From assembly GCA_964529435.1 (NCBI GenBank), contig CAZGUT010000004.1, positions 51,765-91,764 on the forward strand: a stretch of 40,000 nt of DNA. Reading direction: 5' to 3'. Both the position numbers and the translations under genes were made by a program. How positions within the stretch are numbered: position 1 is the first letter of the stretch; each line of letters starts with the position of its first letter. The stretch is from an uncultured Candidatus Peribacteria bacterium (GTDB taxonomy: Bacteria; Patescibacteriota; Gracilibacteria; UBA1369; 2-02-FULL-48-14). The notes beneath the pieces were generated by a model. That model worked only from the letters and a program-made list of their open reading frames with translations. It did no database searches and was not told where the DNA came from. Shown here piece by piece: positions 15,372 through 40,000 of this stretch.

Positions 15372-16832
15372 ATGACAAAAACGCTCAAACATTTTCAAGC
15401 ACTTCTCTCGGAGGGGATATTCGTCACCAGCCTAGTTATGGTTTTTGTGATGGTGAGCTTTGTGACTTTTATGCGACTGACCAGCCTTCCGAATCTAGCG
15501 GAAATCCTACCAGCGGAAGAAACCACAGCCTTCATCACTCTCAACCTGGACGACTACCTCTCTTCTACCGACAAGCCATCGCCGCTAATAAGTGAACTCC
15601 TGACCTACGAAACTTTTCTTGGCGACCATATCGCCTTCGCGCTGATAAGTGATGAAATAGTTCCACTCTTGGAAGTCGACTCAAAAAGTAGTGCCAAAGA
15701 ATTCCTAGAAACGGCACTAATAACAGATTACATTTTCCTTAAAGATTTCCTCATAACATCTCCATCCACTTCTGTCCGCGAAGCCCTAGACTCAAGCACC
15801 CAAACCGTCGAACAAACTGACTCCTACCAAAATGCCCGCGGCCGCCTCCCATACTTTTCCAGCGCTTATGCTTATGTGGATCTGCAAGCAGCCAGAATGG
15901 ATTTGGTCCGGCTCATGGGAGATGTCGGCATTTACGAGCCCGGCTATCTGGAAACAATCCTCAATATTTTCCCAGCCCTAGGCCTTTCAATCGACATGAA
16001 CCCCAGCGAATGGGACGCAGAAGTTTTCATGGCTGTCGACAAATCACAACTCAACGGTGAAGCATTTTTCAAGCACAAACTTAAATACCGCCACGAATTC
16101 TTAGGTCTCAGCTCAAACGGATATGCCTTTGAATGGGGAGGGCACGACTTAGCCGCACAACTCACGAGAACAAGTGAACTCCTCGCAATTCTGAATGAAA
16201 GCGCCTCTTTGGCATTTGATGGTGGAGTAAAAGAATACATATCATCTCTTTTTGGCAGTGAATTAACCCTCGAGGAAATCTACGCAGCCCTCGGCGGAGA
16301 ATATTATCTGGGATGGACACCCAGCGAGAAACTATTACTTATCTTAGAACTTGAAGACGAAACTGCTTTCAACCAAGCTCAAAATCTCAAAGATTATTTC
16401 GCAAATAACTACACCCACACCAAAACTTATGAAACCGAAAATGGTGAAATCCGTGCGGAAATAAAAGATCTCAAAGGAACCTCGGCAAGCTACAATGACA
16501 TGAACTATTTCCGCTTTGGAACAGATGAAGAAACTTTCATTCGCATAGCAATTTCAGAAAATCATGCAATTGTGTCTACTTCCGAAGAAGAATTTTTCGC
16601 CACACTAGACAAAATTCAAACTGGACAAAATCTCCGTGACACGTCTGATCTAGGTAAGCTCCTTTCCGGTGCAGACGAAATTTCCTCACTCGACCTGGAG
16701 TTTTTTGAAGAAGGGCATATACTGAGATCGCTGCTAGACAATTTCGGCAAAATCACAGCCTCGCGCAAAATTTTTGACGACGGTGTCTACTCGCGCTACT
16801 CAATCACGCTCGAGCAAAGTGAATCCGATTAA
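15372..16832 (+). CDS. Membrane-anchored hypothetical protein (486 aa)
   Basis: Single N-terminal TM (IFVTSLVMVFVMVSFVTFM), then an acidic soluble domain. No catalytic motif recognised. Confidence 0.6.
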   Translation: MTKTLKHFQALLSEGIFVTSLVMVFVMVSFVTFMRLTSLPNLAEILPAEETTAFITLNLDDYLSSTDKPSPLISELLTYETFLGDHIAFALISDEIVPLLEVDSKSSAKEFLETALITDYIFLKDFLITSPSTSVREALDSSTQTVEQTDSYQNARGRLPYFSSAYAYVDLQAARMDLVRLMGDVGIYEPGYLETILNIFPALGLSIDMNPSEWDAEVFMAVDKSQLNGEAFFKHKLKYRHEFLGLSSNGYAFEWGGHDLAAQLTRTSELLAILNESASLAFDGGVKEYISSLFGSELTLEEIYAALGGEYYLGWTPSEKLLLILELEDETAFNQAQNLKDYFANNYTHTKTYETENGEIRAEIKDLKGTSASYNDMNYFRFGTDEETFIRIAISENHAIVSTSEEEFFATLDKIQTGQNLRDTSDLGKLLSGADEISSLDLEFFEEGHILRSLLDNFGKITASRKIFDDGVYSRYSITLEQSESD

Positions 16833-19831: not shown

Positions 19832-22363
19832 TCAGAGTGCTTCACGTCTAACCCGACAATCTTTCCCATGTAAACACTGACTCAAACGTCTACCAATCCC
19901 CCTTGCACAAGCAGTCATCGAAGCAGCTTCTCCCTCATAACCTCCGGAACCAGCAATTGGGCAAGGACTTTTTGCCACTTCTTCAGCCTCTTTCATATTC
20001 GCACTTAATCTTTGAACGACTGTGGGTAATTGATCAAATGAAAATGGTCTATCCAAAAACTCTGCAAAAAATCTTCGTGGAATTCTGCCCTCATCCCCAT
20101 ACTGATACCCACAACGAAAATGCAAAATACGCTCATCCGGATCTTCAATTTGAGTATCTACATGACTATGAACACGAATAACCAAAGCACCTGCATCATC
20201 ATCAATTCTTCCAATAGTCTGACCCTCATCTTGACCTTCTGCATGATCAAACTGTGTCCAAAACTCAGCTTCAACTTGAGGAATTGCAGTAGTAGCAGTT
20301 TCTCCAGATTCACACAAAGGTCCAACTGTAAAGCAATGCCGATGAGGTGATGTGCCTGTAGAACCACAATAGGTAACCGCCAATTTTAATCTCTTACTGC
20401 TGGCCACTATAAAATTCTCTCTCCACCCGCGATACGGGTAAAAAGTCTTAAAATCATCAGGAGGCGTTCTCGAATGCCTGTCTGTAAGTCCTGCCACGGC
20501 ATGTAACAGATTGTCAAAAACAGAACTATCAACGCCACTTAACGTGACACCTTTTCTCACAAAAGCTAAAAAAGACTCACTATTACCTTCTCGACTATCA
20601 TTAAAAAGTTGACCTGCACAATCATGACCAGCCAAAAGCTCCGTATACCATTCAGGCTCCTCACCATCTCCTTCCGTTGACTCATCTTCATCCTCTTCCT
20701 CCGGCACAACCACAAAATTCCTTAACTCACCACTCGTGCGAGCAAAAATAAGACAAAGGCCAGTATCACTATTACGTCCAATTATTCCACCTTCTTCCCA
20801 AGAGGACGGCACACTAACAGTCCATCCACCAACAGTAGTCCTCGTTTCGTCTGAACCAGCAGCTTGCAAACATAATCTTAGATGTTCAAGACCTACACGA
20901 ATAGGCCTTTTTTGCCCACGGTCTAATTCAACAGGAACATAAAGATAACCATTTCCCAATCCAAGTCGAGCCAACCTATCCACAGGAGTATACCTGTCCA
21001 TATCTCGCAACGCCTCATCCCAATCCACAGCACCATCTTCCACAGCCGTTTCCTCTTCTTCCTCCACAGGCTCAGGCTCATCATCACGTCTTTCCATCCC
21101 CGGCTCAATCGCAAAACGCCGTATTGTAAAAGTTGCATCTCTACTACGACAAGTTGCACTACCATGTGACGCAGGTCTAGTATCAGCTTCAATTTTTTCG
21201 TCTTTAAGAACTACTTGCCAACCATCATCATGATATCCAATCACAGCTCCGTCCCTCCATCTGGAAGCATCACGAACATGCCAACCACCATGGTTATAAA
21301 TATCTTCACTAAATCTGGACGAAAGTGCCGCAGATATAGTTTCCATCAAGCCACTTGGGTTCAAATTTGCAGCATCACAAGTAATAGAATCAGACTTAAA
21401 AAGCTGACGGCTTTCATCGTGCCCAGTTATCCTAGTTATATGACTATAACCACCTCCAAGCTGCCATTTTTCTTCCCACGCACTAGGCCCATCGTCTTCC
21501 CCCGCCGGTTCCTCTCCCTCATCCTGCACACCACCCAAAACAGGCAATAACCGAACCTTGTCTCCCTCCTGTCCAACAAAAACGAGATCGATTATCACAC
21601 CTTGGCCATTCTCAAAACGCATAACAGGCGTATTTTGCACCCAATCAATAACTTCCATTGATAATCTCCAATCCCCATGTCGGTGCCCCTCAGGCGAGTG
21701 CTCATTCACACTCCGAAGAGCTAATCCAAGCCCACCAAAAAATTGATTCCAAATTTGACCTAAACCTTGTGCTCCACTTGGCAAATCATGCCCATATAAA
21801 GTCCTTTGAATTTCACCTTTCAAACCACCACCCCGGCTGTCACCACTATTTTCTTCATAAAGTTCAAAAACTCTGTCACCCATAACACTCGGCACCCGAG
21901 CATGAAGAATAGCTTTGTAAGGCTCTGCTCCAGCCTCTCTTTCGCCAAGCCCAGCATCTGCAGCTGCCTTAGGACGACGTCTTTTCAGCGCCAAACCATC
22001 TGGCCCCAACTGAACCATAGGTGGTACTTTCTTTTTTGGCTCGTCACCCTCTGCCTCCGGCTCATCCGGTTCATCAGCTGGCTTAGGCTTCTCCCACGTA
22101 CTTTTCCTTGCCTCCAATCTCGCCTTCAAAAACCTCTGCCCAGTAATAGTCCATTCAGGTTTATTTCGCCAGGTCAATAAAGCCCCCAATATACTTTGTT
22201 GTTGGTCAACCCGCATTCCACCAAGAATTTCATCAACAGCAGCCTCATCTCTTCGTTCAGCTGCCTCGCGAATATCAACTTGCGACTGCCTCCACTTATC
22301 TCTTTCCTGCCGCTCTGCGAACGACAACCGAGGTTTTTTCTTTTTCTTTCTTTTACTTCCCAT
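19832..22363 (-). CDS. Large hypothetical protein (843 aa) with poly-Lys N-terminus and internal GGW repeats
   Basis: Uninterrupted 843-codon ORF with ATG start, 54 nt downstream of mutL on the same strand. N-terminus MGSKRKKKKKPRL. Recurrent modules HGGWHVRDASRWRDGAVIGYHDDGW, VGGWTVSVPSSWEEGGIIGRNSDTG and HGDWRLSMEVIDW. Confidence 0.7.
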   Translation of the reverse strand: MGSKRKKKKKPRLSFAERQERDKWRQSQVDIREAAERRDEAAVDEILGGMRVDQQQSILGALLTWRNKPEWTITGQRFLKARLEARKSTWEKPKPADEPDEPEAEGDEPKKKVPPMVQLGPDGLALKRRRPKAAADAGLGEREAGAEPYKAILHARVPSVMGDRVFELYEENSGDSRGGGLKGEIQRTLYGHDLPSGAQGLGQIWNQFFGGLGLALRSVNEHSPEGHRHGDWRLSMEVIDWVQNTPVMRFENGQGVIIDLVFVGQEGDKVRLLPVLGGVQDEGEEPAGEDDGPSAWEEKWQLGGGYSHITRITGHDESRQLFKSDSITCDAANLNPSGLMETISAALSSRFSEDIYNHGGWHVRDASRWRDGAVIGYHDDGWQVVLKDEKIEADTRPASHGSATCRSRDATFTIRRFAIEPGMERRDDEPEPVEEEEETAVEDGAVDWDEALRDMDRYTPVDRLARLGLGNGYLYVPVELDRGQKRPIRVGLEHLRLCLQAAGSDETRTTVGGWTVSVPSSWEEGGIIGRNSDTGLCLIFARTSGELRNFVVVPEEEDEDESTEGDGEEPEWYTELLAGHDCAGQLFNDSREGNSESFLAFVRKGVTLSGVDSSVFDNLLHAVAGLTDRHSRTPPDDFKTFYPYRGWRENFIVASSKRLKLAVTYCGSTGTSPHRHCFTVGPLCESGETATTAIPQVEAEFWTQFDHAEGQDEGQTIGRIDDDAGALVIRVHSHVDTQIEDPDERILHFRCGYQYGDEGRIPRRFFAEFLDRPFSFDQLPTVVQRLSANMKEAEEVAKSPCPIAGSGGYEGEAASMTACARGIGRRLSQCLHGKDCRVRREAL

Positions 22364-26815: not shown

Positions 26816-27256
26816 ATGTATGTAAAAAGATTTTTAGAATGGATTGGCTTAAAAGAAAAGCTACACAAAAAGCTTTCTAAGGCTCCCTGTGTCTCAGAAG
26901 GCGAAATATGGTGGGCCAGTATTGGTGAAAATATTGGGTCTGAAATCAATGGGAAAAGTAAATTATTTTCGCGACCAGTGATTATCTTCAGGAAATTAGC
27001 TCACGATTACTATTTTGTTATTCCTACTACTACAAAAACAAAATCTGGGACTTGGTATGTCTCGTACCACCAGGGTGGAATCGACGCAAATGCCTGTTTG
27101 CAACATGCTCGAGCTATTGATTATCGACGTTTATATTCAAGATTAGGGGAGCTTGATTCAGATGATTTTATGGAAGTGAAGAAAGGATTCAAAGACCTGT
27201 ACTTACAAAATTTTCCCTCCGCCAGGGCGGAGGGTCGCGGGGAATCCCGAATGTAG
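26816..27256 (+). CDS. PemK/MazF-fold toxin-like protein (solitary)
   Basis: EGEIWWASIGENIGSEINGKSKLFSRPVIIFRK...VIPTTTK...ACLQHARAIDYRRL matches the MazF/PemK pattern (G.I.W...G.N.G.E..G..RP.L...). No antitoxin-sized ORF is adjacent. Confidence 0.65.
   Translation: MYVKRFLEWIGLKEKLHKKLSKAPCVSEGEIWWASIGENIGSEINGKSKLFSRPVIIFRKLAHDYYFVIPTTTKTKSGTWYVSYHQGGIDANACLQHARAIDYRRLYSRLGELDSDDFMEVKKGFKDLYLQNFPSARAEGRGESRM
27215..27234. repeat. GC-rich near-perfect palindrome inside the 3' end of the MazF-like ORF
   Basis: CCCTCCGCC-ag-GGCGGAGGG (9-bp arms) in an otherwise AT-rich gene. It encodes the tail ...PSARAEGRGESRM. Confidence 0.6.
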
Positions 27257-28531: not shown

Positions 28532-30100
28532 ATGGAAAATGAAAATGACGTTCGTCCAGTTCAGCGCGCACTTCTTAGCGTGTCTGACAAAACTGATCTC
28601 ATCCCGCTTGCGGAAGCTCTTCACAAGCACGGCACTGAAATCCTCTCAACCGGCGGAACAGCAAAAGTTCTCAAAGACGCAAACATCCCTGTCACAGACA
28701 TCTCAGACTACACCGGCTTCCCAGAAATGATGGACGGCCGCGTGAAAACTCTTCATCCAAAAGTTCACGGAGGACTATTAATGCGCCGCGGCCAGGACGA
28801 CGAAATTGCAGCCAAGCACGACATCAAAGCAATTGATATGGTTGTAATCAACCTCTACCCGTTCAAAGAAACCGTCAGCAAAGAAGGCGTAACAGAACCA
28901 GAAGCAATTGAACAAATCGACATCGGCGGCCCGGGTATGCTCCGTTCTGCTGCAAAAAATCACAAATACGTAACGCCACTCACAGCAATCCAAGACTACC
29001 CGCTCATCATTGAAGAACTTGAAAAATTCGGCGGCATCACAGGTAAAACTCGCCGCAAATTAGCAATCACCGTCTTCGACAAAACCGCAAATTACGACCG
29101 CGCAATCGCAGACTATTTAATGTACGAAGGAAAATCAGTCGAACTCTTAGACCTGCATTATGAAAAAGTAATGTCTCTTCGCTACGGCGAAAATTCTCAT
29201 CAGAAGGCAGCATTTTTCCGTGACCCATCAGATCATTTCCCAAATGTCGCGAACGCAAAAGTCCTGCAAGGAAAACAACTTTCATACAATAATATTGTAG
29301 ATGCAGACGGTGCACTTGAATTGGCAAAAGACTACAATCGACCTGCAGCAGCTGTCATCAAACACACAAATCCATGTGGCGCAGCAACGGCGGAAAATAT
29401 CAATGATGCTTTCACACTGGCATACGAAGTCGATCCAATGTCCGCATTTGGCTGTGTGATTGCTCTCAACCGCCCGTGCACAAAAGAAATCGCTCAGTAC
29501 ATCAAAGACAAGAAACTCTTCGTTGAAATCATCATCGCACCTTCTTTTGACGAAAGCGCTCTCGCGCTGCTTTCAAAACGAAAAAATCTCCGCCTGTTAG
29601 AAACCGGCGCTCTCAGAAAAAACCCAAATCAACGAGCAATCAGAAATGTATCCGGCGGAATGCTAGTCCAAACTTCAGATCAATATGTTGTCACAGAAGA
29701 TGACCTAAAAGTTGTAACAGAAAAAGCTCCATCCCAAGATGAAATTGAAGCGATGCTCTTTGCCAGAATCCTCGTGAAACACGTAAAATCCAACTCCGTG
29801 GTCTTCGCCAAAAAACATGACAAAGGAGGCTGCGTTGCAACCGGAATCGGGGCAGGGCAGATGTCTCGCGTAGACAGCGTAATCATTGCGAAACGCAAAG
29901 GCGGTGAAAATGTACCAGGCTCAGTCATGGCATCAGACGCATTCTTCCCATTCCCAGACGGCGTGGAAGAAGCATGTGACGCAAAGATTTCTGCTATTAT
30001 CCAACCCGGCGGATCCATCCGTGACGACGAAGTCACAGCTCGTGCAAACGAACTCGGCCTCTCCATGGTTCACACTGGCATCCGGTCATTCAAACACTAA
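28532..30100 (+). CDS. purH: Bifunctional IMP cyclohydrolase / AICAR formyltransferase PurH
   Basis: RALLSVSDKTDLIPLAEALHKHGTEILSTGGTAKVL...DGRVKTLHPKVHGGLL (MGS-like IMPCH domain) plus a full-length C-terminal AICARFT region ending HTGIRSFKH. 522 aa. Confidence 0.93.
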   Translation: MENENDVRPVQRALLSVSDKTDLIPLAEALHKHGTEILSTGGTAKVLKDANIPVTDISDYTGFPEMMDGRVKTLHPKVHGGLLMRRGQDDEIAAKHDIKAIDMVVINLYPFKETVSKEGVTEPEAIEQIDIGGPGMLRSAAKNHKYVTPLTAIQDYPLIIEELEKFGGITGKTRRKLAITVFDKTANYDRAIADYLMYEGKSVELLDLHYEKVMSLRYGENSHQKAAFFRDPSDHFPNVANAKVLQGKQLSYNNIVDADGALELAKDYNRPAAAVIKHTNPCGAATAENINDAFTLAYEVDPMSAFGCVIALNRPCTKEIAQYIKDKKLFVEIIIAPSFDESALALLSKRKNLRLLETGALRKNPNQRAIRNVSGGMLVQTSDQYVVTEDDLKVVTEKAPSQDEIEAMLFARILVKHVKSNSVVFAKKHDKGGCVATGIGAGQMSRVDSVIIAKRKGGENVPGSVMASDAFFPFPDGVEEACDAKISAIIQPGGSIRDDEVTARANELGLSMVHTGIRSFKH

Positions 30101-30919: not shown

Positions 30920-31948
30920 ATGTCAAAAAACCCGTCAGATTACGCCATCGCAACCCTGGGGAGCCACACCGCTCTGCAAATTCTCAAGGGCGCAAAAGAC
31001 GAAGGAATCAAAGCAATTGCGGTCTGCACGCCAAAAGCCCGCCGCGTTTATGAAAGTTACGGAGTCGCAGATGAAATCATTGAAGTCGACACTTACCAGG
31101 ATTATTTCAAAATCGAACAACAACTAATAGACCAAAACGCCATCATCATCCCACATGGCTCTTTCGTGAGCTACCTGGGACACGAAAAAATGCGCAACAA
31201 CGTGAAAGCAATGCATTACGGATCCAAAGGTGTTTTGGAGTGGGAATCAGACAGAATGATGGAACGCGAATGGCTCAAAGCAGCCGGACTCAATCTGCCA
31301 AAACTTTACAGAGATCCAGCAGAAATTGACGGCCCAGTAATTATCAAATTCCACGGCGCGCAAGGCGGATTTGGATATTTCATTGCAAATTCACCAGAAG
31401 AATTCAACGAAAGAATCAAAGAATTCCCAGACCACGACGGTTACGTAATCCAAGAATACATCGTGGGTGTGCCAATGTACGTTCACTATTTTGTATCCGC
31501 ACTCACTGGCAAAATCGAAATCATGAGTTTTGACAAACGCTACGAATCAAACGCAGATTCAATCGGGCGGATTGCAGCTCAAGATCAAATTGACGTTGGC
31601 CTCCGCACCAGCTACACCGTAACAGGTAACGTGCCCATCGTAGTCCGCGAATCTCTCATGCCAATGTTCTTCGAAATCGGTGAAGCCGTAGTCCGCGAGT
31701 CCAAAAAACTTAGTGGCGTACCAAAAGGACTTTACGGCCCATTCTGCCTGGAAGGAATCATGGATCCTGAACTCAATTTCCGTGTTTTCGAAATCTCAGC
31801 CCGCATCGTAGCCGGAACAAACCCGTTCACTCACGGCTCACCATACACCTGGCTCCGTTATGACGAACCAATGTCCACCGGCCGCCGAATTGCCCGAGAT
31901 ATCAAAGAAGGGATCTCAGCCGGCCGCCTAGAAGACCTGTTAGGTTAG
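30920..31948 (+). CDS. purP: Archaeal-type FAICAR synthetase PurP (formate- and ATP-dependent, ATP-grasp)
   Basis: YAIATLGSHTALQILKGAKDEGIK..., IIPHGSFVSYLG, LEWESDR, IIKFHGAQGGFGYFIA, NVPIVVRESL, GPFCLEG and FEISARIVAGTN track the Methanocaldococcus PurP sequence as I recall it, block for block. Confidence 0.85.
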   Translation: MSKNPSDYAIATLGSHTALQILKGAKDEGIKAIAVCTPKARRVYESYGVADEIIEVDTYQDYFKIEQQLIDQNAIIIPHGSFVSYLGHEKMRNNVKAMHYGSKGVLEWESDRMMEREWLKAAGLNLPKLYRDPAEIDGPVIIKFHGAQGGFGYFIANSPEEFNERIKEFPDHDGYVIQEYIVGVPMYVHYFVSALTGKIEIMSFDKRYESNADSIGRIAAQDQIDVGLRTSYTVTGNVPIVVRESLMPMFFEIGEAVVRESKKLSGVPKGLYGPFCLEGIMDPELNFRVFEISARIVAGTNPFTHGSPYTWLRYDEPMSTGRRIARDIKEGISAGRLEDLLG

Positions 31949-32042: not shown

Positions 32043-32318
32043 ATGAACAGAGAAAGAATAAGTTTAATCCTAGCAGTCCCAGCATTACTTGCCTCGACGT
32101 GTGCATTGCCGGGCGTACAAGAGCAATTTACAACACGCACACCAGTAGCAATGACATCAAAACCTCTTTCAAAAGAACGAAAAGCACATAATGGCTTTAT
32201 TGAAGGTTGTACAGAACTTTGCTTGTGGGCAACAAATTGTATTGATGCTACTTGTTCCTTGGAAAGAAACGAATGCCAAAGAAGATGCATTTTCGCTCTA
32301 CATGAACCACGAGATTGA
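32043..32318 (+). CDS. Possible small secreted Cys-rich protein (91 aa)
   Basis: Signal-like MNRERISLILAVPALLASTC followed by 6 further Cys. Fits between the palindrome and the purP-2 promoter. No Shine-Dalgarno sequence and an antisense ORF of similar size, so weakly supported. Confidence 0.35.
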   Translation: MNRERISLILAVPALLASTCALPGVQEQFTTRTPVAMTSKPLSKERKAHNGFIEGCTELCLWATNCIDATCSLERNECQRRCIFALHEPRD

Positions 32319-32334
32319 AATAGTAAATAATCTC

Positions 32335-32362
32335 TTGTCCGTGTATATTATCTCCATAGAAT
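32335..32362 (+). promoter_or_regulatory. Candidate promoter upstream of the second purP paralogue
   Basis: TTGTCC -16 nt- TAGAAT, 15 nt upstream of the ATG at 32377. Confidence 0.35.
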
Positions 32363-32376
32363 TTCATAAACCAAAT

Positions 32377-33549
32377 ATGACCCAAAATCTACTAGACGGC
32401 TACGATCTCAAAAATTTAACTATCGGTGTGCTTGGTGGGCACAGCGCCCTGGACGTTTGCGAAGGAGCTAAAAAGCTCGGATTCAAAACACTCGCAGTTT
32501 GCCAAAAAGGCCGTGAAAAAACCTATGCAAAATATTACAAAACTCGTGGCGAAAAAGGCTGCATTGATGACATAATTCTTGTCGACAAGTTTTCAGATAT
32601 CACAAAGCCAGAAATCCAAGAAGAACTCCTCAAACGAAACACAATCTTCATCCACAACAGGTATTTCTGGGTCTACTTCGACGATTTCGACGACATCGAA
32701 AAACGCTCCAAAGTTCCAATTTACGGCCTTCGCAAAGGAGTCCGCTTGGAAGAACGCGACCAGCCACTGAATCAATATCACCTCCTTGAAAAAGCCGGCA
32801 TCCGCATTCCAAAAATCGTAAAATCCGGCACAGATACTTTCAAAAGTGACGAAGATTTCAAAAAAATCCTAGACAAACACTTCAAAGCAAAAGGTGGCCC
32901 ACTCCTCGTAAAAGTAAACGAAGCTACCCGCACTTACGAACGCTCATTCTTTGTCTGCACAACAACAGAAGGATTTTTCAATGAAGCAAAACGAAAAATC
33001 GCAGCAGGAGAAATCACCCAAGAAGCACTCAACCAATCCACAATCGAAGAATTTGTGATCGGTGCACAGGTCAATTTCAACTATTTTTACTCCGCACTCA
33101 ATGACGAACTCGAGCTCATGGGAACAGACACCCGTCGCCAAACAAGCCTAGACGGCTTCCTCAGATTAGACGCTCAAACCCAAACGGAGCTCATGGAAGG
33201 AGGATACAAACCCAGCATGATTGAAACCGGACACATCGCTTGCACGACAAAAGAATCAATCATAGAAAAAGCCTTCGTCGCAGGAGAAAAATTCCTAAAA
33301 ATTATGAAAGAAGAAGTGCCACCAGGCATGATCGGCCCCTTTGCACTACAAGGTGCAATCGCCACCACCAAAGGTAAAGAAGAATTAGTTGTCTTTGACG
33401 TTTCAATGCGAATTCCCGGCTCACCCGGCACCCGCTACACCCCATATTCAAGTTATCTCTGGGGTCATGACATGAGCTACGGCGAACGTATCGCAATCGA
33501 AATCAAAGAAGCGGTCGACACAGATCGCCTTCCCGAAATCTTAACCTAA
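32377..33549 (+). CDS. PurP-family ATP-grasp paralogue (divergent)
   Basis: LTIGVLGGHSALDVCEGAKKLGFKT, EEFVIGAQVNFNYFYSAL, LELMGTDTRRQ, PPGMIGPFALQG and VVFDVSMRIPGSPG parallel the PurP N- and C-domains. The internal ATG at 32377 is preferred; the track ORF from 32191 adds a non-homologous 62-aa extension. Confidence 0.8.
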   Translation: MTQNLLDGYDLKNLTIGVLGGHSALDVCEGAKKLGFKTLAVCQKGREKTYAKYYKTRGEKGCIDDIILVDKFSDITKPEIQEELLKRNTIFIHNRYFWVYFDDFDDIEKRSKVPIYGLRKGVRLEERDQPLNQYHLLEKAGIRIPKIVKSGTDTFKSDEDFKKILDKHFKAKGGPLLVKVNEATRTYERSFFVCTTTEGFFNEAKRKIAAGEITQEALNQSTIEEFVIGAQVNFNYFYSALNDELELMGTDTRRQTSLDGFLRLDAQTQTELMEGGYKPSMIETGHIACTTKESIIEKAFVAGEKFLKIMKEEVPPGMIGPFALQGAIATTKGKEELVVFDVSMRIPGSPGTRYTPYSSYLWGHDMSYGERIAIEIKEAVDTDRLPEILT

Positions 33550-33554
33550 TAAAT

Positions 33555-34616
33555 ATGGATGCTAGCGCCAGCATAGAACACGAACCAAGCTTAGAAGATC
33601 GCCCAGACATTGCCGAACAACTAGATGAACTTTATGCAGAAATAGAAGCAGAAAGTGATTCAGGAGACGTGGAAGAAGCATCTGAAGAATTTGTGAAAAT
33701 GTCAGGTGGAGAAATGCTAGAACAAATCGATGATATTAATGAAGGGACAATAAGTTTTTTGGAGGAAAAGATTAAAGAAGCGCCAAATCGCAAGGAGCGC
33801 AAGCGCGCAAAACTTCAATTAGATATTTATGAGGACACACTTGAACTTCTTGAAGATATTGAGGATTGGGTAGATGAAGAAAAGCCAAAAAAGGTCCAGG
33901 AAAAAACAATGAAATATTTGGACAAAGTAATGAAGCGAATGAGGAAAGCCGGCTTGGATGACGAAGAAATACTAAACGCAGCTGATGAACTCCAAGATTT
34001 CATCAACGCAAATACCCAAGCCTACGAAGAAACAATTGGTAAGCCACATCTCATTTTGGAAGGAACTTCTGTCCTACTTGAACTTATTCCTCTGGTCAGT
34101 GGTCCAAAGATGCTTGCAGAATCTGTCATTGGTAAGACAATGGCAGGGCGTAAATTGAGCATTCCAGGAAGATTTTGGCATGCAACGTGGGCAGGAATTT
34201 GGACCGTAGTTGACACAGCAGGACTCGCTGTGGGCATCCTGGCTGCCCCAGAAACAGCTGGATTAGGAACGGTTGCAGTTGAGGGTGCAGTGCTTGCAGC
34301 AAAGGGCGCAAAAGTAACAAAAGCAATGAAAGTTGGTGCAGCCCTTATGCGTATGGCAAAAGGGGGAGGGAAGGCATCAAAAGCAATTCTAAAGACAAGT
34401 AAATTCCTTGTAAAGCATCCAAAACTAGCAAAGGGTGCAGTCAGAGTGGGTAAACACGGAGGAAAACTCAGCAAGTTAAACACGGTAAAAGGTGCCGTAA
34501 AAATAGCTGCAAAAACACCAAAAGCAGTTGCAAGAATGCGTATTTTTAAAAACGTCCGCGCAGAAAGACTAGAACTTCTCAGTACCCTAGACTCCGTCTT
34601 CAAATCCGCCTCTTAA
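33555..34616 (+). CDS. Hypothetical membrane protein with acidic N-terminal and Lys-rich C-terminal halves
   Basis: 353-aa ORF with an Asp/Glu-rich N-terminal ~170 aa. Hydrophobic segments follow (VLLELIPLVSG and FWHATWAGIWTVVDTAGLAVGILAAP...). It ends in a KGA/KxxK-repeat basic tail. Confidence 0.6.
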   Translation: MDASASIEHEPSLEDRPDIAEQLDELYAEIEAESDSGDVEEASEEFVKMSGGEMLEQIDDINEGTISFLEEKIKEAPNRKERKRAKLQLDIYEDTLELLEDIEDWVDEEKPKKVQEKTMKYLDKVMKRMRKAGLDDEEILNAADELQDFINANTQAYEETIGKPHLILEGTSVLLELIPLVSGPKMLAESVIGKTMAGRKLSIPGRFWHATWAGIWTVVDTAGLAVGILAAPETAGLGTVAVEGAVLAAKGAKVTKAMKVGAALMRMAKGGGKASKAILKTSKFLVKHPKLAKGAVRVGKHGGKLSKLNTVKGAVKIAAKTPKAVARMRIFKNVRAERLELLSTLDSVFKSAS

Positions 34617-34722: not shown

Positions 34723-34830
34723 AAGAAAGAAAGGAGGGGAGACTAACATAAGATGTTGATAGGTTAAATTTCCCCGAATCATGATGAGGGGGAATTTAAA
34801 CCAGTTAGTCGAACCTCCTTTCTTTCTTCT
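34720..34830. repeat. Long nested hairpin B (~110 nt)
   Basis: Perfect 17-bp outer stem AGAAGAAAGAAAGGAGG / CCTCCTTTCTTTCTTCT. Then GACTAAC/GTTAGTC (7 bp). Then TTAAATTTCCCC/GGGGGAATTTAA (12 bp with one G-U) around a 12-nt loop. Its 3' arm abuts the stop codon of the minus-strand ATPase gene. Confidence 0.75.
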
Positions 34831-37085
34831 TAAATCAGTGGCATATCAAAATCCTCAGCCTGCTGAATAACAGTATTTCCTTCACCCTCAGCCGGCGCTT
34901 CTTCAGACGCCTCATCCCATTTCCGCAAATTCGCTTCCACCTCGTCTTTCGGCGTACAATACTTTTCTCGCGATAAATCAATAATCTTCTTACTATGATC
35001 ATCTTTTTCCTCGTAAAACATATCCATAGTCCGTCCAGAAAATGCCTCAGTCAGCTCACCATCAATAGACATCTTTGTGTAGAACTCTCGTACACCCAAA
35101 TTAATAATGTCACGAACATGGAAAATCGGAGTGTATTCCTCCGCCAAAATCACCGCATCTTCAGCACCAACGCGGAAACTAACCATGGAACCAACATTAC
35201 CAAACACCGTTTTTCTAACCTCCTCACTTAGCTGCCCAACAAACTGATGAGCAATCGTCAAACAAAGATGATACTTCCTCGCCTCAGACAAAATCTCCTC
35301 AAAAGTGTCAGTCGCAAAATTCTGAAACTCATCCACGTAAAAATAGAAATCCTTCCTGTCCTCCTCACGCATATCCGCCCTAGCCATCGCGGCTTGATAA
35401 ATCTTCGTCACAATCATAGATCCAATCAACTGAGAATTTTCCTCACCCAAAAGCCCCTTTGAAACTTTCATCAGTAGAATCTTCTCGTTATCCATAATAT
35501 CCCGAATATTGAAGGTATTTATCGGCTGTCCAATAATATTCCGAATCATATTCGTAGAAACAAGCTGCCCAACTTTATTTAGCAGCGGCGTAATCGCCTC
35601 AGCATCAAACTTCTCACTCCAACCTGCAAACTCATTCACCCAAAAATTCTTCACCACAGAATCCTGAATCCGCGCAATAATCGTCTGCCTATAATTCTTG
35701 TCAGACAACATCTTCAAAATCGAAAGCACAGTCGTATTCGGCGAATCCAAAAGCGCCAGTGTCGTATACCTCAGTACATGCTCCAAACGATCCGACCAGT
35801 TCCCACCAAACAATTTTTTAAAGATATCAATAAATCCAATCGTAATCTGCATTTTAAATTTCTCATCTACCTTTTCCAGTGGGTTAAAAGCGATTGGAAA
35901 ATCCACATCTCCCGGGTCAAAATAAACCACATCCTTCATTCGCTCCGGCGGGACTGCACGCAATATATTATCAACAAGATCTCCATGCGGATCCAACACA
36001 GCAATACCTTTCCCCGCCAAAATATCCTTCTTCACAAGCAGCTCCAACAGCTTGGATTTACCTGTACCACTCTTCCCAACAACATAAAGATGCCGTCTCC
36101 GATCCTCACGCTTAATTCCAAAATCCTGGTAATTATTGTGGTAATTCGTGATTCCAAACATCGAAATCTCACGCTCTTTTCTTGTCGGTAAATTCTTCGG
36201 CGGCTCATGCTTCTTTGCCAAAATATGCACAATATGCGGCACATGATCCGCGTTCGGGAAATGATAAAGCGTAGCCAGTTCATGTGCTCCAATTGTTACT
36301 GGTTTCTTCATTTTCCGTGAACGATATTCTTTCAAAAACGACTTCCCACTTTTGATCCGCTCCATCACAAATTCGTTGTAGTCAGTCTTGTTGAATTGAT
36401 AAAGAGCCTTTGCCATCGCCAAAAGATTTTTCTCCGCATCCTCAGCATTTTCAGCAACCGCCCCAACCTTCACCTGAATGCGAAACGGATTGTGTTCTGT
36501 CTTCCCAACAAAATGCGCATCTTCCTCAGTAAAAAATAATTTCTTCGACTTCAATCGCACATAATTCTTAATTCTAAATAGTCTAAAAATACTGTTAAGC
36601 CGCATTTTTACTCGGCGACCAAAATGATAAAGCCAGTTGTCTTTCCGTGGTGAAACCAAAATTTGCACCCAAGCCTGATCTTTAGGGCCAAGCTTAGAGA
36701 TCACAGAAAAGACACCGGAAAGAGAATCAACTTCAAACTCTTCATAATTTTTCAACGGATAAATATCACTTCGCGCCAAATGCGCAGAAGTCCCCAAAAG
36801 AACCTGATTCTCCGGATCAAAAAAGTTCGTATAATCCTTCCTCGGCCTAATCTCACAATCTGGGAAAGTCGCATAAATCAAACCTTCAACAAGCTTAGTA
36901 ATCTCCGGTTCACAACCAATGAAAAAATAGGTGTATTGGCTATACCCAAAAAACTCAAAAGAAAGCTTCTTCCCCTTAGAGGTATTATGCAAATTATCCA
37001 AAAACTGTAGGAACAAATGCTCTTTTTTTGGGTCGTCAGGCGTACCCTGCTCAATTACGACTTGTAGAAAGTCCATTTCCATCAT
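34830..37085 (-). CDS. VirD4/TraG/TraD-like (type IV coupling protein-like) P-loop ATPase with a novel soluble N-terminal domain
   Basis: Walker A LYVVGKSGTGKSKLLELL, VLDPHGDL, Walker B DFYFYVDEFQNFA, LTIAHQFVGQL. The ~330-aa N-terminal region has no TM helices and ends HELATLYHFPN. 751 aa. Confidence 0.8.
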   Translation of the reverse strand: MMEMDFLQVVIEQGTPDDPKKEHLFLQFLDNLHNTSKGKKLSFEFFGYSQYTYFFIGCEPEITKLVEGLIYATFPDCEIRPRKDYTNFFDPENQVLLGTSAHLARSDIYPLKNYEEFEVDSLSGVFSVISKLGPKDQAWVQILVSPRKDNWLYHFGRRVKMRLNSIFRLFRIKNYVRLKSKKLFFTEEDAHFVGKTEHNPFRIQVKVGAVAENAEDAEKNLLAMAKALYQFNKTDYNEFVMERIKSGKSFLKEYRSRKMKKPVTIGAHELATLYHFPNADHVPHIVHILAKKHEPPKNLPTRKEREISMFGITNYHNNYQDFGIKREDRRRHLYVVGKSGTGKSKLLELLVKKDILAGKGIAVLDPHGDLVDNILRAVPPERMKDVVYFDPGDVDFPIAFNPLEKVDEKFKMQITIGFIDIFKKLFGGNWSDRLEHVLRYTTLALLDSPNTTVLSILKMLSDKNYRQTIIARIQDSVVKNFWVNEFAGWSEKFDAEAITPLLNKVGQLVSTNMIRNIIGQPINTFNIRDIMDNEKILLMKVSKGLLGEENSQLIGSMIVTKIYQAAMARADMREEDRKDFYFYVDEFQNFATDTFEEILSEARKYHLCLTIAHQFVGQLSEEVRKTVFGNVGSMVSFRVGAEDAVILAEEYTPIFHVRDIINLGVREFYTKMSIDGELTEAFSGRTMDMFYEEKDDHSKKIIDLSREKYCTPKDEVEANLRKWDEASEEAPAEGEGNTVIQQAEDFDMPLI

Positions 37086-37161
37086 TACATTTTAACATAT
37101 TTTTACAGATTAGCCAACCTGCAAACAACATCTTTCGCAGGAGAGTAATTCTAAGCCCTAT

Positions 37162-38811
37162 TTATGCATATTTCAAATCTCTGAAACACTCCTGGCAATA
37201 CACAGTTTGACCTGATCCAGGAACATAAGGAGCTCTTATGTCTTTAGAACATTTTGTACACTGCCAGTCCCAAAGCCGCCGATAATTCCGTAAGGCCAAA
37301 CGATCCAAATATCTCTGATCCAAACAAGTCCTTGGCAGCGCAACCCCCAATTTCCTGTAAATCGCAAGCTCCCGCGGAACAATTTTATAAAACTTGCCAG
37401 TTTGCTCACACTTCAAAATTTTCTCACAAACATCATTCGGCGTATCTTTAACATGGTCCGGCAACTCATAAGCCTCACCTTGAAAACCCTGATCCTCATT
37501 TTCCTCCTTCCACCCATAACCCCGCGCTTCAGCTTGCTCCTGACTCAACGGATAATATTCCTGCGCAATCGTCTCGTTATACGCAAATGGCGAAAACCGA
37601 GCCGGAAAAAACTCACCCCATTCGTCACCCATATGTTCAATTAACTTAGCCCTCAACTCCTCATACTCTTCCTCCGAATATTGCTTATTCAAAACACAAA
37701 ATTTCTTGTGTCGTAGTCCAACACATCCAAACAAGTCATGACTGTTGTGGCAAATATCAACATAGTCCGAACTATTCATGTCATATGAAACACTCGCAAA
37801 CTTCAAAAATTTCCCTCGATTACATCCATGGCACTCATACTGCCGTTCACACTCAAACGCCGATTCATAAACGTCATAACAGTCGTTCATATGCCCAGCC
37901 TCATAACAATACCGGCAATCCCGCGACTCAATCACATCAAAACTATCCAGAACATTCTTGCATTTCATCATGCAGTCACCCTCACAATCCTCACACATAA
38001 TCAACAGACCAGCTCTTTTAGGTGCATTCTTGATCATCTCTTTATATTCTCGCAAAAACCCCATCAAAACTTCATAAGATCCCAAATCAATCTCACCCAT
38101 AAACTCCGCGTACTGTTCACGTGTCATCTGTTCATTCCGCACACAATATTCCTTTCGCTGCAAATTACTGCACATAAAACAACTCGTACAATTCGTGCAG
38201 CCGTACAAAAACGCAGACTCCGTGGAAAAATCTGAAAAGAAATTATAAATATTTCTAAAGCCCGTCACCTGATACTGATCCTCGTAACAAAGCTGACAAT
38301 CCTCAATGTTGTAACAGTCCACACAGTCCTGACAATTAATCATCCATTTCGAATAAAAAATATCCTGCCCCCTCGCCGTATCCACAGTCATATAACAATC
38401 CTTATTATTTTCCGAATGATTGGTGTAGTCACTATTCTGACTATTTTTTTGATAAAGCGCCAAACGCGGAACCTTCAGCTGGAGCTCATGCATCTGCTCA
38501 AAAAACGACTTCCCAAGATCCACATCCAACCCAAAATCCAGCGCATTCCACTTATCACTCCACCAACAATCATTGCAGTAAACCGTATACGATGAATCCG
38601 CATGATAAATTGAAATAATCTGCTTCCCGCACGCATCACACTTTCTATGATAAAAATTCCGCTCATTCCGCCAACTCATCCGCCTCAGCTGCCTCTCATC
38701 CGGACAAAGACTCGGCAGCGACAAACCATTTTCCTCATAAAACTTCTGATCTCGCTCATCAACCATAAACTCCACTCCAGACCGCCGACATTTTTGTTTT
38801 ATATCTGCCAT
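37162..38811 (-). CDS. Cys-rich multi-zinc-ribbon protein (549 aa), internally duplicated
   Basis: Homologous N- and C-terminal modules: KCRRSGVEFMV..QKFYEENGLSLPSLCPDERQLRR...CDACGKQI...VYCNDCW and KCEQTGKFYKIV..LAIYRKLGVALPRTCLDQRYLDR...CTKCSKDI...VYCQECF. The central region is densely Cys-rich. ATG start, uninterrupted ORF. Confidence 0.75.
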   Translation of the reverse strand: MADIKQKCRRSGVEFMVDERDQKFYEENGLSLPSLCPDERQLRRMSWRNERNFYHRKCDACGKQIISIYHADSSYTVYCNDCWWSDKWNALDFGLDVDLGKSFFEQMHELQLKVPRLALYQKNSQNSDYTNHSENNKDCYMTVDTARGQDIFYSKWMINCQDCVDCYNIEDCQLCYEDQYQVTGFRNIYNFFSDFSTESAFLYGCTNCTSCFMCSNLQRKEYCVRNEQMTREQYAEFMGEIDLGSYEVLMGFLREYKEMIKNAPKRAGLLIMCEDCEGDCMMKCKNVLDSFDVIESRDCRYCYEAGHMNDCYDVYESAFECERQYECHGCNRGKFLKFASVSYDMNSSDYVDICHNSHDLFGCVGLRHKKFCVLNKQYSEEEYEELRAKLIEHMGDEWGEFFPARFSPFAYNETIAQEYYPLSQEQAEARGYGWKEENEDQGFQGEAYELPDHVKDTPNDVCEKILKCEQTGKFYKIVPRELAIYRKLGVALPRTCLDQRYLDRLALRNYRRLWDWQCTKCSKDIRAPYVPGSGQTVYCQECFRDLKYA

Positions 38812-38965
38812 AAATTAATCCCGATAGATTTGCGTTAGATGTTATTTGTCTTTTGATATGACGCCGGCGTTTTTCTTTAACCTGAATGCTAATATTTCTC
38901 CTCTAAATAACATTGCTCACAGTATACCCTAAAAAGTTTTCCACAACACACACGAGCCTTTCCAT

Positions 38966-38988
38966 AAAAAATTCAGGAAAAATTCAGG
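38966..38988. repeat. Tandem direct repeat AAAAATTCAGG x2
   Basis: aaaaaattcagg-aaaaattcagg in the divergent intergenic region, about 50 nt upstream of the TA promoter candidate. Confidence 0.5.
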
Positions 38989-39013
38989 ACAAGCGTAAGT
39001 CTTCTCTGCTATC

Positions 39014-39042
39014 TTGTTTATTGATCTATTCCATGATACAAT
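39014..39042 (+). promoter_or_regulatory. Candidate promoter of the toxin-antitoxin cassette
   Basis: TTGTTT -17 nt- TACAAT. This argues against the TTG (39014) and probably the ATG (39047) starts of the track ORF. Confidence 0.3.
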
Positions 39043-39073
39043 ATTTATGAATTTAATTAATTTAACTAAATTT

Positions 39074-39316
39074 ATGAATACTTATACTCTGAAAATGTTT
39101 AACACAGGTCAAATCACTTTACCCAAAGCATGGCGTGAAAAATTCAAGACCAAACATTTCATCGCCGAACAAACGGACAAAGGACTTCTCATCAAACCAA
39201 TCCTTCCAGAAGAAGAAGTGGTTTATTACGAAAATGATGAAAGTTGTGGCTTATTTTTTCCCAAAGGAGTAGATCCGCAAGTTTTAATTGATAAAATAGA
39301 CGAAATCGATGGATAA
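39074..39316 (+). CDS. AbrB/MazE/SpoVT-type antitoxin
   Basis: FNTGQITLPKAWREKFKTKHFIAEQTDKGLLIKPI is a SpoVT-AbrB swapped-hairpin motif. Its stop overlaps the toxin start (ATGGATAA). The start could be the ATG at 39074 or 39095. Confidence 0.7.
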   Translation: MNTYTLKMFNTGQITLPKAWREKFKTKHFIAEQTDKGLLIKPILPEEEVVYYENDESCGLFFPKGVDPQVLIDKIDEIDG

Positions 39317-39560
39317 AATAGGGAAATTTTTAAAACAACTGCAAAAGAAAAAACGAAAATTTTTAAAAGAAAAAATTTTCCCAAAAATAAAAAATTTAAA
39401 TTTACAAGGTTTAGACGTGAAAGCCTTAACAGGTTATAAAGGGCTTTATAGAGTGAAGTTAAACAAAACAAGAATCATCTTTTTTAAAGACGAAAAAAAC
39501 AAACGAGGTGTAATAATTGCGGCAGATTATCGCAAAAATGTCTACAAAAAATTTCAATAA
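39309..39560 (+). CDS. RelE/ParE-family toxin
   Basis: LTGYKGLYRVKLNKTRIIFFKDEKNKRGVIIAADYRKNVYK matches the RelE/ParE core (L.G....R.R.G.YRII........I.I....R...Y). 83 aa, translationally coupled to the antitoxin. Confidence 0.7.
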   Translation: MDKIGKFLKQLQKKKRKFLKEKIFPKIKNLNLQGLDVKALTGYKGLYRVKLNKTRIIFFKDEKNKRGVIIAADYRKNVYKKFQ

Positions 39561-40000
39561 ACTTCCTTTAAATAACACTCCTCACAATACACAATCTCCG
39601 GCTTCTCCGGCGAAAAACTTGTGTACATCTTCGTGCCGCATTTCGCGCAATCACGTTCCCAGCCAAATCGCGGATTCCTGAGCTCCATCCGATCCAAATA
39701 TCGCTGATTCGGCGATCTCCGCGGCAAAGGAATACCGTGCTTCTTATAAAACGCCAATTCCTGAGGAATAATCTTGTAATGTTCACCGCTCACCTCACAG
39801 GTGAAAATCTGCTTACATATCGAATCATCCGCTCCCATCGCCGTATCCGGCAGCTCTATCGCCGGTCCTTGATATGAAGCTTTGCCTTTTGGATCCTTCC
39901 ACTTTAATCCACGCGCCTTCACTTCTTCTTCGCTAAGTGGCAAATAATCCTGAGCCACGGTCTCATTGTAGGCGTACGGGCTCATAGTCATCGGAAAAAA
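39554..40000 (-). CDS. Paralogue of the multi-zinc-ribbon protein (C-terminal part; 5' end outside window)
   Basis: The frame stays open to base 40000 (FFP precedes the listed Met, matching GEFFPARFSPFAYNET of the 549-aa protein). SPYAYNETVAQDYLPLS...GEHYKIIPQELAFYKKHGIPLPRR..QRYLDRMELRN...CAKCGTKM...VYCEECY aligns along the whole length. Confidence 0.8.
   Translation of the reverse strand, partial: FFPMTMSPYAYNETVAQDYLPLSEEEVKARGLKWKDPKGKASYQGPAIELPDTAMGADDSICKQIFTCEVSGEHYKIIPQELAFYKKHGIPLPRRSPNQRYLDRMELRNPRFGWERDCAKCGTKMYTSFSPEKPEIVYCEECYLKEVY

Follow-up and report, generated by a model that had tools for sequence, protein, structure and literature searches.

A T4CP-like ATPase gene linked to tandem arrays of zinc-protein genes in Patescibacteria

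Introduction

Why should a gene for an ATPase resembling the type IV coupling proteins (T4CPs) lie beside genes for paralogous, cysteine-rich zinc proteins? The question is raised by one end of a 40,000-nucleotide (nt) stretch of DNA (the window; positions 51,765 to 91,764 of the forward strand of contig CAZGUT010000004.1, assembly GCA_964529435.1) from an uncultured Candidatus Peribacteria bacterium, a Peribacteria/Peregrinibacteria member of the Patescibacteria or candidate phyla radiation (CPR). The Patescibacteria hold a large share of bacterial diversity, have genomes of ~1 Mb and depend on host cells. In the list of open reading frames (ORFs), two neighbouring minus-strand ORFs encode a zinc protein of 549 amino acids (aa; ZnR, a name we also use for its family) and the 751-aa ATPase; a further minus-strand ORF begins beyond position 40000 and stops at 39554, and two small plus-strand ORFs lie between the two Cys-rich genes (Table 1). 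An earlier reading of the letters alone (the original prediction) had described an ATPase and zinc-protein pair, a second zinc-protein copy, a toxin–antitoxin (TA) insertion between the two copies and a hairpin between the paired genes, and all of these lie where it had placed them. Our best explanation, which we advance tentatively, is that the locus forms one end, that nearest the ATPase, of a module conserved in Patescibacteria and made up of a ZnR array, a TrmB-family regulator and one soluble ATPase.

Linkage of the ATPase and ZnR genes

From the side of the ATPase, 39 genome loci with 10-kb flanks were compared, 21 of Peribacteria type and 18 from other CPR lineages. One to seven ZnR genes lie directly upstream of the ATPase gene, on the same strand, in 18 of the 21 Peribacteria loci; of the three remaining loci, two have hardly any sequence upstream or none, which makes 18 of the 19 informative loci positive. 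A 252-aa TrmB-family regulator is often embedded in these arrays on the opposite strand, and the ATPase locus occupies a fixed syntenic place beside purH/purP. Among the 18 other loci a ZnR gene is present within 10 kb only in L024. Gene order differs from lineage to lineage: four ZnR genes converge on a 41%-identical ATPase of 740 aa on a Falkowbacteria contig, a convergent ZnR gene lies 1 kb downstream of the ATPase in Abawacabacteria, and a Kerfeldbacteria locus runs from a Sigma70_r4/HARE-HTH protein through a DUF8128 protein (the N-terminal family of the ATPase, see below), an ATPase, a fused ATPase without anchor and a DUF433/PIN TA pair to a ZnR gene. No ZnR gene is present at a Magasanikbacteria locus.

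The sample drawn from the ZnR side comprised 80 metagenome loci averaging ~12 kb, of which 53 hold at least two ZnR copies, the maximum being 11 copies in 22 kb. An ATPase-family gene is present in 18 of the 80, where chance would give an estimated ~2–5% (assuming 1–3 copies per ~1-Mb genome). The ATPases adjacent to ZnR genes take three forms: a fused protein without anchor, a split arrangement of a transmembrane (TM)-anchored N-domain and a motor, and motor-only proteins inside the arrays (several of ~490–510 aa). The array genes and the ATPase gene are closely spaced (−24 to ~90 nt), and the architecture of ZnR stays fixed at copy numbers of 1 to 11.

Co-occurrence outside this genome, on which the original prediction depended, is thus seen in several lineages and in several gene orders. 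In no locus examined is the ATPase family part of a complete type IV secretion system (T4SS) or competence locus, the setting named beforehand as contrary, and a Pfam scan of the recurrent gene families in the 10-kb flanks of the 39 loci, limited to those families, showed no recognisable relaxase or T4SS family. We consider it very likely that the ATPase and the ZnR arrays are functionally linked.

The ZnR array and ATPase genes are probably co-transcribed. A search of the spacer between the ATPase and 549-aa ZnR genes gave no terminator-like site, and promoter-like matches there are at chance level, in keeping with the shared transcript that had been judged plausible. The hairpin seen earlier between the two genes is present and, as described, has no U tract; it is otherwise unremarkable, the spacer RNA folding no better than its shuffles (z = −0.61), and is rejected as a terminator or regulatory element.

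A divergent pairing of ZnR and TrmB genes is found in ~18 of the 80 metagenome loci. At a Kerfeldbacteria locus (L040, 9071–13462), a single ZnR gene stands between a divergent TrmB gene and one for a PilB/T2SSE ATPase, and no DUF8128 ATPase gene is close by.

The ATPase

The nucleotide-binding motifs of the motor domain are both intact (Walker A, GKSGTGKS, at residue 337; Walker B, FYFYVDE, at residue 580). Over residues ~314–640 the Pfam families T4SS-DNA_transf (32.2 bits; gathering cut-off 20.1), TrwB_AAD_bind (26.6 bits; cut-off 20.5) and TraG-D_C (24.6 bits; cut-off 22) are matched above their cut-offs, as is DUF87, the signature of the HerA central P-loop, only over residues 330–397 (29.5 bits; cut-off 23.2). 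By sequence, this last match would place the ATPase at the level of the HerA/FtsK superfamily, and HerA orthology does not follow from it. Compared with PDB sequences, the motor profile finds TrwB (E 6e-4), DotL (0.015) and HerA (0.018), and no VirB4; CagE_TrbE_VirB and AAA_10/P-loop_TraG are absent from the Pfam matches of the whole ATPase. The T4CP-like character ascribed to the C-terminal part by the original prediction is therefore borne out by three Pfam families above cut-off and by TrwB as the best PDB sequence match. Profile searches of both proteins, which it had proposed as a check, gave T4CP families and DUF8128 for the ATPase and zf_Tbcl_2 only for the 549-aa protein.

In the N-terminal domain nothing had been recognised at first. 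It is in fact Pfam DUF8128 (PF26449), a precomputed match (E ≤ 1e-5) being recorded both for the identical protein encoded on the source contig and for almost every homologue. Structure prediction and structural search, also proposed at the outset, gave a confident AlphaFold2 model of residues 1–320 (pLDDT 88, pTM 0.85), and TrwK/VirB4 chains from the R388 T4SS make up all of its best 13 Foldseek matches in the PDB (E 1e-5 to 1e-3, prob 0.99–1.00, TMq 0.42–0.51); after these come only unrelated folds with E > 1e-3. The match is to TrwK/VirB4 chains and is not placed on a particular TrwK segment, and a Pfam scan at E ≤ 10 gave no sequence-level link of the N-domains to VirB4. Since the predicted fold of the N-domain matches TrwK/VirB4 and the motor is T4CP-like by sequence, the ATPase looks like a hybrid of a VirB4-like N-domain and a T4CP-like motor.

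The maximum 19-residue Kyte–Doolittle hydropathy of the ATPase is 1.28, below the threshold of 1.6, so that no membrane helix is detected and the lack of an N-terminal anchor noted originally holds. In homologues from Saccharibacteria, Curtissbacteria, Magasanikbacteria and Berkelbacteria there is a single strong helix at the N-terminus (hydropathy 2.1–3.1), and the separately encoded N-domain proteins of other CPR lineages also carry a strong TM helix. The presence of this helix either in the homologue itself or in its separate N-domain protein suggests that the ancestral machine was located at the membrane.

The protein of the window ends in an acidic tail closed by a short motif (Table 1). 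The form [DE]-F-x-x-P-[LIM]-[IVL]-COOH follows an acidic tail in every member of the anchor-less clade, with F and P at least 90% conserved (alignment A1); motor-only ATPases of ~490–510 aa inside ZnR arrays end in a shorter P-[LIM]-[IV], mostly E-E-P-L-I, and nothing similar was found in TM-anchored, split or other clades. In a rough neighbour-joining tree of the motor domain, nearly all ZnR-adjacent ATPases of the unbiased sample fall into one anchor-less clade, which includes the window protein, and the TM-anchored clades are without ZnR adjacency. ZnR linkage follows the anchor-less clade, which alone carries the full C-terminal F-x-x-P-L-I motif.

These features bear on one alternative, namely that the protein is an ordinary T4CP serving a T4SS encoded elsewhere and that the ZnR array is a neighbour kept by synteny. 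The T4CP Pfam families above cut-off would fit such a role, T4CP genes often lie away from virB4 and chromosomal T4SSs are common in Patescibacteria (PMC12102498), and in Bacillus phage G the homologue gp156 follows the VirB4-like gp155. We nonetheless regard this account as quite improbable. Adjacency to ZnR occurs in at least four distant lineages where gene order and the form of the ATPase differ, a pattern that inherited synteny leaves unexplained; no TM anchor is predicted; the NCBIfam equivalog cut-offs for T4CPs are far from reached (CD1115, 47 vs 250 bits; SXT_TraD, 43 vs 366; TraD_Ftype, 19 vs 521); no relaxase or VirB gene was found in the window or among the 10-kb flanks that were inspected; and S. 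epibionticum, the one species open to genetics, can dispense with its t4cp homologue though its T4SS is essential (PMC12102498).

Homologues of the ATPase are 60–84% identical across Peribacteria and Gracilibacteria (72–84% between Peribacteria genomes), and homologues of both the ATPase and ZnR come almost all from Peribacteria, Peregrinibacteria, Gracilibacteria and other Patescibacteria. The ATPase family extends beyond the CPR, as indicated by the match of phrog_5156 to residues 189–721 (E 6e-68); phage G gp156 aligns over 92% of the ATPase (E 8e-42) and SPO1 gp27.4 is a further homologue. The occurrence of this domain architecture in jumbo and SPO1-like Bacillus phages gives the family a reach past the lineage considered here. 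The full DUF8128 and motor architecture is seen in the large Bacillus phages G (L128, 89194–93336), SPO1 (gp27.4) and 0305phi8-36 (ORF201), and gp155, the protein preceding gp156 in phage G, has P-loop_TraG and AAA_10.

Many genomes carry tandem ATPase sets in which a TM-anchored or split copy is followed by an anchor-less fused copy (L022, 7425–12403; L044, 6138–12253; L046, 6391–12223), hinting at paralogues which work together. In lineages with the split family (L023, L024, L025, L027–L029, L031 and L044) a ~365-aa protein with Sigma70_r4 and HARE-HTH opens the operon, giving the order regulator or DNA-binder, TM-anchored DUF8128 protein, ATPase. In a complete Peregrinibacteria genome (L018; CP064978.1, 8589–15600) the ATPase is present as two ORFs (355 and 357 aa) alongside several ZnR fragments (137–290 aa), which could be due to decay of the module or to assembly errors.

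The zinc proteins

The 549-aa ZnR protein contains 37 Cys residues. Its sole Pfam match is to zf_Tbcl_2 (PF23477; 29.5 vs 27 bits), a C-terminal treble-clef module at residues 511–545; TIGR04272 stays below its cut-off (27.9 vs 36). Four cysteines of this module, C518, C521, C539 and C542 (CxxC-x17-CxxC), are invariant in 59 sequences, and modules of the same spacing bind zinc experimentally in small proteins of Methanosarcina (PMC12704099). The C-terminus of the truncated paralogue at the window end also aligns to the N-terminal module of the 549-aa protein (32% identity), indicating that the same module is present at both ends of ZnR. The AlphaFold2 model (pLDDT 88.4, pTM 0.88) likewise has a Zn module at each end; its centre, roughly residues 115–375, is predicted to consist of two runs of very short, regularly spaced strands in a β-solenoid pattern, each run closing with a helix which bears the repeated motif YC[IV]xNKQYSKEEYE. 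No hydrophobic segment and no recognisable secretion signal were found in the protein. It has an isoelectric point (pI) of 5.1 overall (family median 6.0); its Zn modules are rich in Arg, the C-terminal module being basic (pI 9.4, +8.7).

Comparison of the model with solved and viral structures gave no significant fold match, and the ZnR profile found only marginal LIM-finger matches over 30 residues among PDB sequences (E 1e-3). It could be supposed that the ZnR proteins are enzymes, either acyltransferase-like with a left-handed β-helix or of a metal/redox type, and functionally unrelated to the ATPase; the high Cys content (37 of 549 residues) and weak Foldseek matches of the centre to the β-helices of LpxD, LpxA, GlmU and γ-carbonic anhydrase would be in line with this. 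We consider it very improbable, as those matches are not significant (E ≥ 0.02, TM ≤ 0.11, prob ≤ 0.38), no Hexapep Pfam match is present in ZnR, and the conserved adjacency to the ATPase would be left unexplained.

The family is large, with 3,589 clusters at 50% identity at E ≤ 1e-3 and 1,457 at E ≤ 1e-30, and almost all of the best 150 matches listed have a length of ~550 aa. All named members are from the CPR; no homologue was found in 50,697 phage records, and IMG/VR gave one marginal fragment.

The original prediction spoke of a pair with a second zinc-protein copy. Both the partner and the second copy are real, the latter being a true paralogue that shares 46% identity over its last 138 residues with the C-terminus of the 549-aa protein (E 2e-45); the pair is actually the end of an array of at least five ZnR paralogues which, with a TrmB-family regulator, lies upstream of the ATPase on the source contig. 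There (locus L129, in which position 8767 corresponds to window position 40000) the order towards the ATPase is ZnR (549 aa, partly past the locus end), a PIN-type TA pair, ZnR (544 aa), ZnR (545 aa), two uncharacterised genes, an oppositely oriented TrmB gene, ZnR (529 aa, truncated in the window), the RelE/AbrB pair, ZnR (549 aa) and the ATPase. The five paralogues are 34–53% identical to one another. Across Peribacteria, the best match of a ZnR copy averages 64% identity between genomes and 43% within its own; the between-genome match is the better for 98% of copies, and position is partly conserved. As copies are nearer to their counterparts in other genomes, the duplications are old, predating the divergence of the genomes compared, and the copies are individually maintained. 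Recent paralogue expansion and concerted evolution were considered and are rejected, the copies being closer between genomes than to each other.

TA genes recur around these loci: the PIN pair of the source-contig array lies at L129 1446–2146, and in Kerfeldbacteria the DUF433/PIN pair lies between ATPase and ZnR genes (L044, 12327–12925).

Such a history might be expected if the paralogues were distinct subunits of a heteromeric fibre or scaffold, joined head to tail through their Zn modules, which the ATPase would assemble or disassemble. In this direction point the ancient, positionally conserved copies, a length and architecture rigidly kept across more than 1,400 sequence clusters, the pseudo-symmetric arrangement of Zn module, solenoid, solenoid and Zn module with homologous ends, and the weak similarity of the module (E 1e-3) to LIM, a protein-interaction finger. 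The variation in copy number from 1 to 11 between lineages, however, fits poorly with a fixed multi-subunit structure, and we give this possibility little credence.

A possible mechanism and its weak points

The locus had been likened to defence or DNA-handling modules. In its explicit form this would mean that ZnR binds DNA or RNA and that the ATPase translocates or clears nucleic acid, as in HerA-partner systems. The motor does belong to the FtsK–HerA/T4CP lineage of DNA translocases, the ATPase has weak PADLOC matches to mad8 (E 5e-10) and HerA (E 6e-7), the Zn modules are Arg-rich with a basic C-terminal one, and TA cassettes recur inside the loci. The matches of the ATPase are, however, only at the P-loop level, and PADLOC-DB 2.0 gives none for ZnR, the TA proteins or a neighbouring 353-aa protein; ZnR is acidic overall; the fixed place by purH/purP and the 72–84% identity of the ATPase fit the vertical descent of a core gene better than they fit a variable island; the paralogues are ancient, with conserved positions; a defence system organised as an array of up to 11 genes of 1.6 kb would be unusual; and no nuclease or other effector domain was found. 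The suggested context thus gained no positive support, and we regard nucleic-acid handling or anti-phage defence as improbable. None of the rival explanations has positive support beyond superfamily-level resemblance.

The conserved module that we tentatively prefer would have three components. The first is a tandem array of anciently diverged, ~550-aa ZnR proteins, predicted to be zinc-binding β-solenoids, with at least five copies here and up to 11 elsewhere; the second is a divergently transcribed TrmB-family regulator, often within the array; and the third would be a soluble ATPase of the VirB4/VirD4 (FtsK–HerA) lineage, composed of DUF8128, a T4CP-like motor and the acidic F-x-x-P-L-I tail. 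Like its relatives, the ATPase may form a ring. Contact with the ZnR proteins would be made by its C-terminal tail and/or N-domain, and it would use ATP to hand on, remodel or export them, the ZnR proteins being either clients (substrates) or interchangeable specificity adaptors. A likely destination would be a membrane-anchored paralogous pair of DUF8128 protein and ATPase, or a T4SS-like apparatus encoded elsewhere in CPR genomes. This role for ZnR as client or adaptor of a translocation motor is inferred and is put forward with caution, as a mechanism that may well prove wrong. It is favoured because the relatives of the ATPase are substrate-engaging ring motors, because related forms have a membrane anchor, with their genes in some cases directly preceding that of the soluble form, and because clients or specificity factors are easier to reconcile with a variable copy number than fixed subunits are. 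By analogy, the acidic tail motif of the ATPase and the basic C-terminal module of ZnR are candidate contact points.

Several observations weigh against this explanation. One Peribacteria locus (L010) has 10 kb of upstream sequence without ZnR, and is the sole true negative of that group; at least one Kerfeldbacteria genome encodes the ATPase and ZnR families far apart; and 62 of the 80 ZnR loci are without an ATPase gene within the available sequence. The metagenome loci were picked via ZnR, which biases the motor-domain tree towards ZnR adjacency. The VirB4-like nature of the N-domain comes from a single Foldseek search on a predicted model, with TMq ~0.5 and 7–8% identity. Finally, tightly folded multi-zinc proteins are unusual as secretion substrates, and ZnR is without a recognisable secretion signal.

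A bolder extension of the client or adaptor mechanism would make the ATPase and the ZnR arrays a CPR-specific pathway of protein handling or export, in which the tail peptide recognises ZnR, delivery is to the anchored motor or a T4SS, and the action takes place at the epibiont–host interface; we think it unlikely as a whole. If true, the orphan T4CPs of Patescibacteria would gain a function and ZnR would represent a new and major class of effectors or adaptors in the CPR. The ZnR arrays can occupy roughly 1–2% of a 1-Mb genome, and the up to ~18 kb that a tiny genome can spend on this one paralogue family suggests an investment in something important. The linkage yields a concrete hypothesis, namely that the tail or N-domain of the ATPase binds ZnR and that ZnR is exported, assembled or remodelled.

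Other features of the window

The remainder of the window is housekeeping in character, with genes for FtsW, MurG, a radical-SAM MiaB-like protein, AlaRS, MutL, an M23 peptidase, PurH, UppP, two archaeal-type PurP proteins and an SLH-domain protein. Pfam scans of the 40 kb found no recognisable conjugation or T4SS genes (relaxase, VirB4, VirB6, pilin) elsewhere in it, in agreement with the absence noted at first, and neither tRNAs nor Rfam families were found in the window. A mobile element or conjugative island is rejected, since the flanks are housekeeping (purH, uppP, two purP, mutL, alaS, murG) and synteny is kept across Peribacteria.

The TA cassette reported between the ZnR paralogues is a putative type II, AbrB/MazE-like and RelE-like pair spanning 39014–39560, its two ORFs overlapping by 8 nt; the antitoxin ORF scores just below the Pfam cut-off for MazE_antitoxin (23.6 vs 24.7 bits). 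As locus L019 has the same pair downstream of the ATPase, the cassette is mobile. A PemK/MazF toxin gene is also present in the window.

The two paralogous PurP genes encode FAICAR synthetase-like proteins (DUF1246 + DUF1297) near PurH, an arrangement kept across Peribacteria loci. Converging on the ATPase gene is that of a 353-aa protein with an acidic N-terminal half and a Gly/Ala/Lys-rich C-terminal half; it has no family match, and proteins of 31–34% identity occupy the same position in five other Peribacteria loci. ORFs of 975, 486 and 843 aa have no Pfam match at E 0.05, and the first of these, which is followed by a protein with three SLH domains, may encode a cell-surface protein.

Table 1. 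Coordinates of features in the window (position 1 is its first nucleotide).
Feature	Position	Strand	Basis or remark
DUF8128 + T4CP-like P-loop ATPase, 751 aa, no predicted membrane helix	34830–37085	−	Pfam, NCBIfam, hydropathy
N-terminal domain of the ATPase, residues 1–~300, DUF8128, predicted VirB4-like	36186–37085	−	Pfam and AlphaFold2/Foldseek
P-loop motor domain of the ATPase, residues ~305–725	34911–36171	−	Walker A 36054–36077, Walker B 35328–35348
C-terminal motif D-F-D-M-P-L-I ending the acidic tail; candidate docking peptide	34833–34853	−	Clade conservation
Intergenic spacer, 76 nt	37086–37161	−	Holds hairpin 37118–37141
ZnR paralogue nearest the ATPase, 549 aa; terminal Zn modules around two Cys-rich β-solenoid halves (predicted)	37162–38811	−	Pfam, AlphaFold2
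AbrB/MazE-like antitoxin	39014–39316	+	Pfam MazE_antitoxin E 4.9e-5; TIGR01439 AbrB E 5e-4
RelE-like toxin	39309–39560	+	phrog_1213 RelE-like, E 2e-7; no Pfam match
ZnR paralogue, C-terminal 148 codons in window	39554–40000	−	Complete copy 529 aa, source-contig locus L129 7624–9213
353-aa protein	33555–34616	+	
PurP, second paralogue	32191–33549	+	DUF1246 + DUF1297
PurP, first paralogue	30920–31948	+	DUF1246 + DUF1297
PurH	28532–30100		
PemK/MazF toxin	26816–27256	+	
843-aa ORF	19832–22363		
486-aa ORF	15372–16832		
Protein with three SLH domains	9102–10754		
975-aa ORF	6173–9100		

Comparison with known systems

Like the zf_Tbcl zinc modules (TIGR04272, PF23477, PF13451), both terminal modules of ZnR carry CxxC-x17-CxxC. 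Elsewhere, such modules are stand-alone small proteins (Methanosarcina, PMC12704099), whereas ZnR has two of them around a Cys-rich, predicted β-solenoid of ~350 residues; unlike those small proteins, the 550-aa protein is without a characterised relative. Literature searches on DUF8128, Peregrinibacteria ‘zinc ribbon’ and Patescibacteria cysteine-rich paralogs found nothing relevant, and no paper describing the ZnR family.

With the T4CPs (VirD4/TrwB/TraD/DotL) the ATPase shares a homologous P-loop motor, its Walker A and B motifs intact, TrwB and DotL being the closest solved members. Unlike them, it has no detected TM anchor, starts with the 300-aa DUF8128 and has a ZnR array, not a relaxosome, as its partner. 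The acidic tail of TraD binds TraM, and the tail of DotL binds adaptors which include the zinc protein DotN; the acidic C-terminal tail of the ATPase is reminiscent of both, as an analogy. VirB4 (TrwK/TraB/TrsE), usually a soluble or peripheral protein, has the same layout of an ATPase preceded by an N-domain without a P-loop, but the window ATPase has no CagE_TrbE_VirB or AAA_10 match, its motor is nearer to the T4CPs, and it has no VirB3, VirB6 or VirB8 neighbours. In type VII secretion, the gene for the FtsK-like motor EssC/EccC adjoins tandem genes for WXG/LXG clients, whose number varies between strains. The arrangement here may be compared with it in that a motor gene stands beside a paralogous array; the ATPase lineage differs, ZnR proteins are large, uniform, zinc-binding and ancient and are not polymorphic toxins, and their secretion is only proposed. 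The split N-domain protein and ATPase of many CPR lineages appear to resemble the TrsD and TrsE split of Gram-positive T4SSs (PMC12102498).

The nearest precedent is the survey of Quinonero-Coronel et al. (2025), who reported 5,713 VirD4-like homologues in 2,918 Patescibacteria genomes, about 2 per genome, of which only 148 lie near virB4, and who suggested exaptation of these orphan T4CP homologues for another function, leaving that function open (PMC12102498). About two copies per genome with few near virB4 matches the paralogue pairs and housekeeping contexts described here, and the window ATPase very probably belongs to this orphan set. The ATPase family is therefore already known, both as orphan T4CP homologues (2025) and as DUF8128. 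That paper does not mention the DUF8128/VirB4-like N-domain, the anchor-less subclade, the C-terminal motif or a zinc partner (‘zinc’ occurs 0 times; PMC12102498); judged by the searchable literature, the ZnR family, the tandem arrays of its genes, the linkage to the anchor-less, motif-bearing clade and the VirB4-like N-domain appear to be new. There is a realistic chance that the module is a distinct CPR pathway. Within the orphan T4CPs, one subclade is without an anchor, carries a unique C-terminal peptide and is consistently linked to arrays of uncharacterised zinc proteins.

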